Part shown: piece after piece, positions 41,101 to 47,116 of the stretch
Layout of the letters: every line of letters begins with the position of its first letter
Position numbering within the stretch: position 1 is the stretch's first letter
Source: an uncultured bacterium
GTDB taxonomy: Bacteria; Nitrospirota; Thermodesulfovibrionia; Thermodesulfovibrionales; Thermodesulfovibrionaceae
Length of the DNA: 64,000 bases
Direction of reading: 5' to 3'
NCBI GenBank assembly: GCA_937924475.1
Contig: CALDSV010000010.1
Span: forward strand, 1,603 to 65,602
The notes under the pieces: generated by a model
Told to the model about the DNA's origin: nothing
Databases searched by the model: none
The model's input: the letters and a program-made list of their open reading frames with translations, nothing else
Position numbers and translations under genes: made by a program

Positions 41101-42727
41101 AAAAGTTAACTTTCTTCTTAAAAAAGAGAAAGGTACTATCAGGAAGGATCCAGGTGGCAAGATAAAAGTTTGCCTTATATATCCAAACATTTATAGGATT
41201 GGTATAAGTAATTTAGGTTTTCAGACAGTTTATAGACTCTTCAATGAGAGAAAAGATGTAGTTTGTGAGAGAAGCTTTCTTCCTGCTGAAGAAGATTTGA
41301 GAGAATATGAGAATAAATCCCTTTTTTCTTATGAGTCTAAGATCCCTCTCTATGAATTTGATATCATAGCTTTTAGTTTAAGTTTTGAAAACGATTATCC
41401 AAATATAATGAGAATTCTTCAGCTTTCAAAAATACCCATCTTAAGGTCAGAAAGACAGTCTTTTCATCCTTTATTAATAGCTGGTGGGGTAGCATGTTTT
41501 TCTAATCCGGAACCTTTTTCTGAGATTTTTGATGTAATTTTCATTGGAGAAAGTGAAGCATTAATACATGTTTTTGTAAATAAGTATATTAGCGTAAAAA
41601 ATTCCTCTTACGAAAAGGATTTCAAAGATAATTTAAAAAAGGAACTTATAAAATTAGATGGTTTCTATATACCTGAAGCTTATGAGGAGATTAGTGATAG
41701 TTCTGGCAAAATCTATGAAAGAAAAATTTTATGGAGTAATGCACCCACTAAAGTAAAAAAGGTTTATTGTAAAGATTTCTATGAAAAATTCAGTTCCTCA
41801 CAAATAATTACAGATGCCTCCATTTTTCCTAATATGTATTTAGTTGAGACAATGAGAGGTTGTCCCTTTCGATGCCGCTTCTGCTTAATAGGTTATGTTT
41901 ACAATCCTGTTCGTAAGGCTTCTTTTGAAAAATTAAAAATAAAACTTAGTGATTTCGATGATACACAGAAAAAAACCATAGGACTTATTGCTCCATCTAT
42001 TTCTGCCTATAAGGAGATTGGTGATTTACTAAAAAATGAGAAAATTGAGCTTTCTTTTACCTCTCTGAGAGCAGATGAGTTAACCATGAGAATTATTGAT
42101 AATTTTCCTAAGAGGAGAACTATTACTTTAGCTCCTGAAGCGGGTTCTGAAAGGCTCAGAAAAGTTATAAAAAAGGGGATTTCAGAAGAAGGTTTCTTAA
42201 GAATTGTAGAGAAAATAGAAAAAAAAGGATTCGAAAATCTTAAACTTTACTTTATGATAGGATTGCCTCTTGAACAAGAGGAAGATATCGAGGAAATTCT
42301 CAAATTCATAAGAAAATTGAGGACAATCTTTTCAAGAAAAATAATAGTGAGCATAAGCATTTTTGTTCCAAAACCTCATACTCCCTTTCAATGGCATAGG
42401 ATGGATGACTTTTATATTGTGAGGGAGAAATTAAAAAAACTAAAAAGAGATTCTTTGAAAATCAAAGGAGTTAATCTCTTGCATGAAGTTCCTAAATATG
42501 CTTATATGGAAGGTTATTTCTCAAGGGGTAACAGAAGTGCTTTTTCTGTAATAAAGAGAGTTTCAGAGGGTGAAAATTTTAGTAAAATATTTGGAGAAGT
42601 TGAAAGTCAACTATGTTCTCAAAGAAATTTTCATGATATTTTGCCGTGGGATTTCATTGAACACGAGGGGATAACAAAAGAACTTTTATGGAAAGAATAT
42701 AAAAAGGCCTTATCGATCTTTGATTAA
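41084..42727 (+). CDS. radical SAM protein with B12-binding-like N-terminal domain
   Basis: YPNIYRIGISNLG, FSLSFENDY, RGCPFRCRFC (CxxxCxxC), LAPEAGSERLR, LYFMIGLP, KPHTPFQW. Confidence 0.85.
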   Translation: MRKIVEKVNFLLKKEKGTIRKDPGGKIKVCLIYPNIYRIGISNLGFQTVYRLFNERKDVVCERSFLPAEEDLREYENKSLFSYESKIPLYEFDIIAFSLSFENDYPNIMRILQLSKIPILRSERQSFHPLLIAGGVACFSNPEPFSEIFDVIFIGESEALIHVFVNKYISVKNSSYEKDFKDNLKKELIKLDGFYIPEAYEEISDSSGKIYERKILWSNAPTKVKKVYCKDFYEKFSSSQIITDASIFPNMYLVETMRGCPFRCRFCLIGYVYNPVRKASFEKLKIKLSDFDDTQKKTIGLIAPSISAYKEIGDLLKNEKIELSFTSLRADELTMRIIDNFPKRRTITLAPEAGSERLRKVIKKGISEEGFLRIVEKIEKKGFENLKLYFMIGLPLEQEEDIEEILKFIRKLRTIFSRKIIVSISIFVPKPHTPFQWHRMDDFYIVREKLKKLKRDSLKIKGVNLLHEVPKYAYMEGYFSRGNRSAFSVIKRVSEGENFSKIFGEVESQLCSQRNFHDILPWDFIEHEGITKELLWKEYKKALSIFD

Positions 42728-43978
42728 ATTGTTTAATAATTTCAGAGTCTTTTCTGCAGCTCCTGAATTCCTTTTTAGGATTTCATAGGCTTTCTTCCCC
42801 AAATTATGACTAAATTCAGAATCAGAGATAAGTTTTTTTATTGTTTCTGGTAAAGAAGCTTTATCTATAATCAGGCAGGCTTTCTCTTTTGCGAATTCCT
42901 CAATGAAAGGAAAATTATTCATATGGGGACCACATATGATAGGTTTTGTCCAATAAGCAGGCTCTAAAGGATTTTGACCACCATGAGGAATAAAACTCCC
43001 TCCTATTATTGCAATATCACATATTCTATAGAGAGAACCAAGGATTCCAATCTTATCAATAAGAATTATATATGCATCATAATCATCTTTTAATTTTGAG
43101 GAGAATTCCGATAATTTGAAGAAATAGATTTTTCTTTTAATATTAGAGATTTTTTTTTCAATAAGAATTCTTACCTCTTCAAATCTCTCTGGATGTCTTG
43201 GTGCTAAAAGGAGCGTGCCTTTTAATTTAAGTTTTAGAAAAACTTCTAAAATCAACTCTTCTTCTGGATAATGTGTGCTTCCTGCTAAAATAACAGGCTT
43301 TGGAATAGCATTTTCCCATTCAAAATTAATTTTTTCTAATTCAATATCAAATTTTAGATTCCCTGTAACATGTAATTTTTCCATATCTGCACCAAGCCTG
43401 ATAAATCTATCTCGGTAGGATTCATTCTGTACGCAGATTAAAGTGAGCTTTCCTATTATGGTCTTCATGAAAAATTTTAATTTTTTATAACCTGAGAAAG
43501 ATTTATCACTCAATCTTCCATTGATGAGAATAACAGGAAAATCTTTTGAAGCAATCCATATTAGATTGGGCCATAGCTCCGTTTCTGTGAGAATTAATGC
43601 TTTTGGATTAAAATTTTTAATGGTTCTTTCTATTACAGAGGGAATATCAAAGGGAAGATAAATTATAGTTACTGAGCAGTCTTTAAATCTCTGAGCAGCC
43701 ACCTTTTGGCCAGTATCAGTGATTGTACTTAATAGAATTTCATATTCCTGTGATAATTTTTTTATTAATGAAGACACTGCTATCACTTCTCCCACAGATA
43801 CTGCATGAAACCAGATTTTAGGTTTTAGATTTGAATTTTTTTCGGTGAAAAATCCAAACTTTTCCCTTAACCATCTATTTCTTAATTCTTTTGGCCTTTT
43901 TAAATATTCCTTAGGTAACAAAAAAATAATGAAAATTGAATACAAAAAGGTATATATTAGTAAAATAAATCTATACAT
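42710..43978 (-). CDS. waaA: 3-deoxy-D-manno-octulosonic acid (Kdo) transferase
   Basis: WFHAVSVGE, ETELWPN, AGSTH, APRHPER, GGQNPLEP. Confidence 0.95.
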   Translation of the reverse strand: MYRFILLIYTFLYSIFIIFLLPKEYLKRPKELRNRWLREKFGFFTEKNSNLKPKIWFHAVSVGEVIAVSSLIKKLSQEYEILLSTITDTGQKVAAQRFKDCSVTIIYLPFDIPSVIERTIKNFNPKALILTETELWPNLIWIASKDFPVILINGRLSDKSFSGYKKLKFFMKTIIGKLTLICVQNESYRDRFIRLGADMEKLHVTGNLKFDIELEKINFEWENAIPKPVILAGSTHYPEEELILEVFLKLKLKGTLLLAPRHPERFEEVRILIEKKISNIKRKIYFFKLSEFSSKLKDDYDAYIILIDKIGILGSLYRICDIAIIGGSFIPHGGQNPLEPAYWTKPIICGPHMNNFPFIEEFAKEKACLIIDKASLPETIKKLISDSEFSHNLGKKAYEILKRNSGAAEKTLKLLNNLIKDR

Positions 43979-46184: not shown

Positions 46185-47116
46185 CTGCTGTCTCCTCCAT
46201 TTATTTCTCTTATGATTTTCAAAACTTCAATTATCTCATCAGGTGTTGGTGCAATCTTAGAAAGAGTTTTTTCTTTCACACAATTAAGAAAATCTCTTAT
46301 TTCTTCAAATAAAGGCTGTTTATCCTTCTCTTTTACCTCGATTTCTTTTGAGTTTCCTTTTTCATCAATTCTCATTATTGTCCTTTTTATTAAATCTGCA
46401 TGAATTGTAAAATCTTCCTCAATTACAGAGAAAATTCTTTGATAATCAGAATTTATCCTGCTTGCAGTAAGAGTTGTTTTCAAAATTTTACTGTCTGCCT
46501 CCAATTCAAGCCAGACAGTGGCAAAATCATATTTATCTGTAATTAACCTTTTAGTAAAGGCTTTTAAATTTATTAACTTTAAATTCCCTCTTGCTTTAAA
46601 AATTTTCCAGATTAAATCAAGATCATGTATCATCAAATCAAAGGTTACGGCTGTGTCAGTAGCTCTACCTAAGAAGGGAGAGAGTCTTTGGGCAGATATA
46701 AATTGAGGATTGTTTATGTGTTCTATCAAAGTCTTAATAACGGGGTTAAATCTCTCTATTAACCCTACTTGAAAGATTACTCCTTTTTGAAGAGCTTTTT
46801 TTATCAGAAATGTGGCTTCCTGAGGATTTTCAGTTATAGGTTTTTCTATGAAAATGTTTTTTTCGGCTTCAATTAAATTCTCCGCAATTTCTGAATGCGT
46901 GTGTGTAGGAGTAACTATAAAAAATATTTCTGCTTTATCAAGTAAATATCTATAATCATTAGTCACTTTTAATCCAAATTGAGAGGCGATTTCATTAGCT
47001 TTATTAATGTCTTTATCTACAATTCCTACAATTTCTGTATCTTCCATTTGAAGGAGAGTTTTAATGTGTCTTTGTCCAAAATAACCTGCACCTATGACTG
47101 CTACTTTATGTTTCAT
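46181..47116 (-). CDS. Gfo/Idh/MocA oxidoreductase, probable GnnA (UDP-GlcNAc 3-dehydrogenase)
   Basis: GAGYFGQRH, IEKP, ERFNP, DLMIHDLD; coupled to the aminotransferase and lpxB. Confidence 0.85.
   Translation of the reverse strand: MKHKVAVIGAGYFGQRHIKTLLQMEDTEIVGIVDKDINKANEIASQFGLKVTNDYRYLLDKAEIFFIVTPTHTHSEIAENLIEAEKNIFIEKPITENPQEATFLIKKALQKGVIFQVGLIERFNPVIKTLIEHINNPQFISAQRLSPFLGRATDTAVTFDLMIHDLDLIWKIFKARGNLKLINLKAFTKRLITDKYDFATVWLELEADSKILKTTLTASRINSDYQRIFSVIEEDFTIHADLIKRTIMRIDEKGNSKEIEVKEKDKQPLFEEIRDFLNCVKEKTLSKIAPTPDEIIEVLKIIREINGGDSR

Follow-up and report, generated by a model that had tools for sequence, protein, structure and literature searches.

A predicted GnnA/GnnB pair upstream of lpxB and waaA points to diaminoglucose lipid A in a Thermodesulfovibrio-like bacterium

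Which sugar forms the backbone of lipid A in the Thermodesulfovibrio lineage, glucosamine (GlcN) or 2,3-diamino-2,3-dideoxyglucose (GlcN3N), is addressed here from four genes of an uncultured member of the Thermodesulfovibrionaceae (phylum Nitrospirota). They lie in the window analyzed in this work, a stretch of 64,000 nucleotides (nt) from contig CALDSV010000010.1 (hereafter C10) of assembly GCA_937924475.1, a genome of 1.87 Mb in 80 contigs that is 94.7% complete, has a G+C content of about 33% and, judging from the nearest database proteins of the window, belongs close to Thermodesulfovibrio. Four overlapping, co-directional open reading frames (ORFs) fill minus-strand positions 47116-42710 exactly, and their Pfam and NCBIfam matches bear out the initial annotation, which had placed an oxidoreductase and a DegT aminotransferase in a coupled arrangement upstream of lpxB and waaA. 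The same annotation had proposed that this pair corresponds to GnnA and GnnB and leads to a diaminoglucose lipid A. The analysis reported here supports that proposal: with a probability of roughly 0.85, the two genes are orthologues of gnnA and gnnB whose products make the 3-amino derivative of UDP-N-acetylglucosamine (UDP-GlcNAc), UDP-GlcNAc3N, and the lipid A backbone of this organism is partly or wholly diaminoglucose.

The reference system is that of Acidithiobacillus ferrooxidans (Sweet, Ribeiro and Raetz 2004, J Biol Chem 279:25400, as cited in PMC8036547), and what GnnA and GnnB do as enzymes is described there, as PMC8036547 reports, and in PMC5644692 and PMC11446377. As in A. ferrooxidans, the oxidoreductase is followed by the aminotransferase directly upstream of lpxB, with UDP-GlcNAc3N for lipid A as the predicted product. 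The two systems differ in that lpxA is not adjacent to the block studied here, which instead stands behind bamD and a cysG_N-like gene and has waaA directly after it, and in that this genome uses LpxI.

Evidence for the first enzyme comes from sequence profiles. When the oxidoreductase was searched on its own against the PDB, the best match was 7bvj with 111 bits, the second reaching 54 bits. A family profile was then built from the window protein and 39 diverse relatives (40 sequences), drawn from 1.8 billion representative proteins, and this profile matched 7bvj over its full length with 325 bits, the next entry scoring 156 bits. The WlbA entries 3q2k and 3q2i obtained 69 and 65 bits, and only across positions 3-141, the domain that binds nicotinamide adenine dinucleotide (NAD). 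By their PDB titles, 7bvj and 7bvk are GnnA and 3q2k is WlbA of Bordetella pertussis; the GnnA structures are those of Manissorn et al. 2020, as cited in PMC9636410.

The structural comparison agrees with this ranking. The AlphaFold model of the oxidoreductase has a predicted local distance difference test score (pLDDT) of 96, and Foldseek places A. ferrooxidans GnnA chains at all of ranks 1-5, with template modelling (TM) scores of 0.86-0.89. In VIA-align the GnnA chains again come first (Z 36.1, 28% identity) and B. pertussis WlbA appears at rank 31 with 14% identity. Other members of the Gfo/Idh/MocA superfamily also attain Z values of 31-35, and the fold alone thus discriminates weakly; it is the sequence profile, together with genomic context, that discriminates. 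The motifs conserved in the family are GAGYFG at positions 9-14 (the GxGxxG of the NAD site), EKP at 91-93 and MIHDLD at 162-167, and both EKP and the longer DLMIHDLD are common to the window protein and A. ferrooxidans GnnA. None of the residues E91, K92, P93, D160, H164 and D165 varies among the 40 aligned sequences, and all six recur in 7bvj; from general knowledge of the superfamily, we assume that the residues of the EKP and DLMIHDxD motifs have catalytic roles. One position departs from this pattern, since E121, also invariant in the family alignment, is a lysine in the A. ferrooxidans enzyme. Fold, full-length closeness, motifs and association with lipid A genes together place the oxidoreductase in the GnnA family, and oxidation at C-3 is its predicted activity.

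These same data bear on the reading that the two enzymes act on some other sugar or on a cyclitol, and that their likeness to GnnA and GnnB reflects nothing beyond shared superfamily chemistry. Gfo/Idh/MocA and DegT are indeed very large families acting on many substrates, the oxidoreductase shares little identity with the characterised GnnA (27-28%), and several Nitrospirota families carry the oxidoreductase gene abutting lpxB with no DegT gene beside it. The family profile, on the other hand, matches GnnA from end to end, with most invariant columns common to both, and its conserved place within the lipid A clusters of phyla far apart would be difficult to account for if the substrate were unrelated. 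We consider this reading very improbable.

The aminotransferase is a full-length DegT enzyme whose nearest named relatives in the PDB are the C3-aminotransferases QdtB (357 bits) and WbpE (320 bits); the top match, 7b0d (425 bits), was not used, its function not having been traced in the paper search. Its lysine K185, in the PSK motif (PSKNLG), aligns with the PSK of WbpE and is the predicted Schiff-base lysine for pyridoxal 5'-phosphate (PLP). Closeness to QdtB and WbpE fits amination at C-3, yet it cannot separate GnnB from WbpE, and context and phylogeny were used instead. A tree of 43 DegT proteins was inferred, composed of the window protein, 20 unlinked Nitrospirota copies and 22 proteins encoded next to a gnnA-like gene; most of the latter are encoded between that gene and lpxB, they come from Nitrospirota, Thermodesulfobacteriota and Pseudomonadota, and no characterised GnnB is among them. 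The window protein falls within a set of 12 rows made up exclusively of linked genes, with 97% support in the Shimodaira-Hasegawa-like approximate likelihood ratio test (SH-aLRT), and where a second DegT copy is present, as in two genomes of the same genus, this copy is placed outside the lpx-linked set. Over the whole tree the linked or unlinked label changes 3 times, against a mean of 14.6 when labels are shuffled. The aminotransferase is hence orthologous, on this phylogeny, to the DegT proteins encoded between gnnA and lpxB, and transamination of UDP-3-oxo-GlcNAc is its predicted reaction.

The relationship with WbpE calls for a comparison with the WbpB/WbpE (WlbA/WlbC) route, in which the pair would act on UDP-N-acetylglucosaminuronic acid (UDP-GlcNAcA) toward the diacetamido-mannuronic acid nucleotide UDP-ManNAc3NAcA, destined for the O-antigen. 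The chemistry is alike, namely NAD-dependent C-3 oxidation of a UDP-N-acetylhexosamine followed by PLP transamination, and the aminotransferases are clearly related, WbpE being a strong PDB match of the window protein (320 bits). The genome also encodes a TviB/WbpA-like UDP-GlcNAc 6-dehydrogenase (448 bits, with a TviB cut-off of 592), which lies on another contig, beside glycosyltransferase genes and not beside the gnnA/gnnB pair. The dehydrogenases, by contrast, are distantly related: the 69 bits of WlbA 3q2k, confined to the NAD-binding domain, compare with 325 bits for GnnA at full length. The Wbp substrate is moreover a uronic acid, and the present genes lie in a lipid A setting instead of an O-antigen one. 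Five enzymes are required to make UDP-ManNAc3NAcA, namely WbpA, WbpB, WbpE, WbpD and WbpI (PMC10622841). A search of the genome with the Hexapep model returned only LpxA, LpxD and one frame of 457 amino acids (aa), so that no WbpD-type acetyltransferase was found, and a search with Epimerase_2 gave no match and thus no WbpI-type UDP-sugar 2-epimerase. The 457-aa frame is presumably GlmU, an assignment that we make from its length. With a weak match to WlbA and neither WbpD nor WbpI found in the genome, the Wbp pathway was rejected, and we regard it as highly unlikely here.

Gene order in other genomes provides the contextual half of the argument for GnnA and GnnB. The oxidoreductase is found in 73 of 81 Nitrospirota genomes, always in single copy, and lpxB in 78; comparison of coordinates shows that the two genes adjoin in nearly all genomes having both. 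Among cultured relatives, T. yellowstonii and T. hydrogeniphilus have orthologues with 55-60% identity. In the families nearest to this genome, and in several others, gnnA and lpxB are separated by a gap of 1.1-1.3 kb that a DegT gene of 50-77% identity fills exactly. Four other Nitrospirota families have no such gap, the gnnA-like gene and lpxB being in direct contact; their nearest DegT gene is located elsewhere in the genome, and its product falls outside the lpx-linked clade. Neighbourhoods were compared on regions taken from 20 genomes. Four genomes of this genus share the gene order bepA-acyP-bamD-cysG_N-gnnA-gnnB-lpxB-waaA, of which the bamD-cysG_N-gnnA part is kept in a second family of the same taxonomic order. 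In the Thermodesulfovibrio-like families, the block gnnA-gnnB-lpxB-waaA has been relocated to a position behind bamD and cysG_N, apart from lpxD-fabZ-lpxA-lpxI, and the older arrangement was probably lpxD-fabZ-lpxA-lpxI-gnnA-(gnnB)-lpxB...waaA. One family stands out, in that all seven genomes sampled have lpxD-fabZ-lpxA-lpxB with neither a gnnA-like gene nor lpxI; the other sampled families have both genes, save for a family represented by a single genome, in which lpxI was not detected. The joint absence of gnnA and lpxI is a single evolutionary event and thus does not show a functional link between them.

The association extends well beyond the phylum. Outside the Nitrospirota, 80 named loci carry a gnnA-like gene, about half of them inside or beside an lpx cluster, in Acidobacteriota, Thermodesulfobacteriota, Verrucomicrobiota, Elusimicrobiota, Omnitrophota, Planctomycetota, Pseudomonadota and other phyla; a representative arrangement is lpxD-fabZ-lpxA-(lpxI)-gnnA-(degT)-lpxB. 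One locus, in a metagenome-assembled genome of the Ectothiorhodospiraceae, has two copies of lpxA: one belongs to an lpxA-gnnA-degT group, the other to a second set, fabZ-lpxA-lpxB, encoded on the opposite strand.

This distribution bears on one part of the initial annotation. The diaminoglucose lipid A that it had predicted is favoured by sequence, profile and fold, by the gnnA-degT-lpxB synteny, by the lpx-linked DegT clade and by the incomplete Wbp pathway; its suggestion that such a lipid A would be an adaptation to heat is not supported, and was rejected as a specific explanation. Besides its presence in 73 of the 81 Nitrospirota genomes, the oxidoreductase occurs, among other named records, in those of Nitrospira, Limnohabitans and Flavobacteriales, all three mesophilic groups. 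Occurrence across the phylum and in mesophiles makes the trait look inherited and widespread, not specific to thermophiles.

An evolutionary reading is also advanced here tentatively, and we hold it to be slightly less probable than its negation. According to it, the ancestral lipid A of the Nitrospirota was of the diaminoglucose type, with gnnA placed between lpxI and lpxB and lost along with lpxI in one family, such lipid A may be far commoner in uncultured phyla than the characterised cases suggest, and the amination, disaccharide and 3-deoxy-D-manno-octulosonic acid (Kdo) steps were moved in Thermodesulfovibrio into the bamD/bepA run.

As a third alternative, the pair might supply UDP-GlcNAc3N, or something derived closely from it, chiefly to a different glycan. 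The O-chain, the core or a surface glycoprotein could contain a 2,3-diacetamido sugar, as happens through the archaeal pathway, and the adjacency to lpxB would then reflect only a habit of clustering among lipopolysaccharide (LPS) genes. The best NCBIfam match of the oxidoreductase is in fact NF040723, the archaeal UDP-GlcNAc 3-dehydrogenase, which has the same predicted reaction on UDP-GlcNAc and feeds a diacetamido-sugar pathway, not lipid A. An LPS cluster with an O-antigen ligase gene is likewise present elsewhere in the genome. This LPS core cluster (contig C67, 13912-24320) comprises several heptosyltransferase-like genes and glycosyltransferase family 4 (GT4) genes, an O-antigen-ligase-like gene and then the TviB/WbpA-like 6-dehydrogenase gene, which suggests that the core or O-chain contains an N-acetyl-hexosaminuronic acid. 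The rest of the evidence runs the other way. Apart from LpxA and LpxD, the hexapeptide search gave only the presumed GlmU as an N-acetyltransferase; across many phyla the gnnA-like gene sits among lipid A genes, between lpxI or lpxA and lpxB, and not in O-antigen clusters; and within the phylum it is present nearly everywhere, in one copy per genome, unlike the variable genes of O-antigen synthesis. We therefore judge a main use in another glycan unlikely, if somewhat less so than the two alternatives already discussed.

For a diaminoglucose lipid A, the remaining enzymes are at hand. The lpxA gene, which the initial annotation had reported as lying outside the window, is on contig C5 of the same genome with lpxD, fabZ and lpxI, and lpxC and lpxK are on other contigs; lpxA, lpxC, lpxD, lpxI and lpxK are each single in the genome, LpxI being assigned by Pfam with an NCBIfam score under the cut-off. 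Neither the oxidoreductase nor the aminotransferase has a paralogue in its own genome by tblastn. With LpxA, LpxC, LpxD, LpxI, LpxB, LpxK and WaaA all present, the pathway that could use UDP-GlcNAc3N is complete.

On contig C5, the end of lpxI is ATGA-coupled to a gene (5388-6398, minus strand) for a 336-aa polytopic membrane protein with a tail rich in proline, glutamine and glutamate, which occupies the place of lpxB in other Nitrospirota. It has no match in Pfam or NCBIfam, and the ESM Atlas returned only clusters of hypothetical Nitrospirota proteins together with a weak lead to DUF7847.

From these genes we infer the substrates of the two enzymes, the flux of their product into lipid A and a GlcN3N share of the backbone. 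GnnA would use NAD+ to oxidise the 3-hydroxyl of UDP-GlcNAc to UDP-3-oxo-GlcNAc, and GnnB, with PLP, would transaminate the ketone of this intermediate to give UDP-GlcNAc3N. Next, the single LpxA would attach an acyl chain to the nitrogen introduced at C-3, and LpxC, LpxD, LpxI, LpxB, LpxK and WaaA would complete Kdo-lipid A, with LpxB and WaaA supplied by the same operon as GnnA and GnnB. The predicted product would have backbone sugars that are partly or wholly 2,3-diamino-2,3-dideoxyglucose, with amide-linked acyl chains. Such a scheme has a precedent in Campylobacter jejuni (van Mourik et al., as cited in PMC8036547), where the same two-gene route is present in an organism with a single LpxA, which shows that lipid A can be supplied by a gnnA/gnnB pair even when no second LpxA is devoted to it. 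The backbone of the present organism may be mixed or purely GlcN3N. Mixed GlcN3N/GlcN backbones are made by C. jejuni.

Several points weigh against this conclusion. The oxidoreductase has about 27-28% identity to A. ferrooxidans GnnA, the one characterised GnnA compared, and the sole specific NCBIfam model, NF040723, matches it with 167 bits, far under its cut-off of 450. Among the 17 PDB LpxA sequences listed, the LpxA of this genome is closest to that of Escherichia coli (264 bits) and least like the Leptospira entry 3hsq (201 bits), which we take to be the UDP-GlcNAc3N-selective enzyme; the published basis of selectivity is reportedly the orientation of a backbone carbonyl, which is not readable from sequence. 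The ranking is uninformative on selectivity, and nothing in LpxA itself argues for a preference for UDP-GlcNAc3N. The TviB/WbpA-like 6-dehydrogenase means that UDP-GlcNAcA could occur in the cell, the incompleteness of the genome means that genes missing from it are not found, rather than proven absent, and our literature search returned no lipid A structure from any member of the Nitrospirota.

The organization of the locus (Table 1) suggests joint expression of the genes for sugar amination, for disaccharide formation and for Kdo transfer, given that their reading frames overlap, by 4 nt (ATGA) between gnnA and gnnB and by 22 nt at both the gnnB/lpxB and the lpxB/waaA junctions. The assignment of WaaA is based on Pfam, its best NCBIfam model, NF004388, scoring 327 bits, under the cut-off of 438. 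The co-directional run continues upstream of gnnA through the cysG_N-like gene, bamD, the acylphosphatase gene and the bepA-like gene (47106-50095, minus strand), the end of the cysG_N-like gene overlapping the start of the oxidoreductase gene by 11 nt. Scans of the run for consensus promoters and terminators gave hits at chance level only, and the limits of the operon are thus defined by overlaps and synteny alone. On the overlaps, the short gaps and the synteny, we infer that the run from bepA to waaA is a single transcription unit, and in the Thermodesulfovibrio-like lineage gnnA-gnnB-lpxB-waaA hence appear to be co-expressed with bamD and bepA, which serve outer-membrane assembly. The cysG_N-like protein encoded between bamD and gnnA is an odd partner for outer-membrane genes. 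At the other end of the run, the 3' ends of waaA and of a radical SAM gene overlap convergently by 18 nt (42710-42727), leaving no space for a terminator between them.

Table 1. Genes of the gnnA-gnnB-lpxB-waaA locus and its flanks, in window coordinates
Feature	Position	Strand	Details
bepA-like M48 protease gene	48806-50095	-	Pfam/NCBIfam family match
acylphosphatase gene (acyP)	48518-48796	-	Pfam/NCBIfam family match
bamD	47756-48511	-	Pfam/NCBIfam family match
cysG_N-like gene, NAD-binding protein	47106-47744	-	212 aa; NAD_binding_7, precorrin-2 dehydrogenase type, like the N-terminal domain of siroheme synthase
gnnA-like gene, NAD-dependent Gfo/Idh/MocA oxidoreductase, predicted UDP-GlcNAc 3-dehydrogenase	46181-47116	-	311 aa; Pfam PF01408 GFO_IDH_MocA, E 3e-29
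gnnB-like gene, PLP-dependent DegT-family aminotransferase, predicted UDP-3-oxo-GlcNAc 3-aminotransferase	45081-46184	-	367 aa; Pfam PF01041 DegT_DnrJ_EryC1, E 1.3e-126
lpxB, lipid-A-disaccharide synthase	43957-45102	-	381 aa; TIGR00215, 219.6 bits (cut-off 190.25); Pfam LpxB, E 2.6e-78
waaA (kdtA), Kdo transferase	42710-43978	-	422 aa; Pfam Glycos_transf_N, E 1.2e-59
B12-binding radical SAM gene, TIGR03960-like	41084-42727	+	convergent with waaA

Our literature search returned no paper tying GlcN3N to the Nitrospirota or describing the lipid A of Thermodesulfovibrio, and the prediction made here is new for this lineage. It is at the same time a plain extension of a well-known system, and no new question arises from it: what the two enzymes are, how they act and that they are encoded beside lpx genes has been known since 2004. 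Public records name the genes only as "Gfo/Idh/MocA family oxidoreductase", and a more specific annotation is thus justified. If the prediction is true, the lipid A of Thermodesulfovibrio and of most Nitrospirota would carry amide-linked acyl chains at positions 3 and 3', which would bear on the stability of the outer membrane, on the reading of environmental lipid biomarkers and on the immune-stimulating capacity of LPS. Should the ancestral reading hold as well, the bamD/bepA arrangement of the Thermodesulfovibrio lineage would couple the supply of lipid A to the assembly of outer-membrane proteins.

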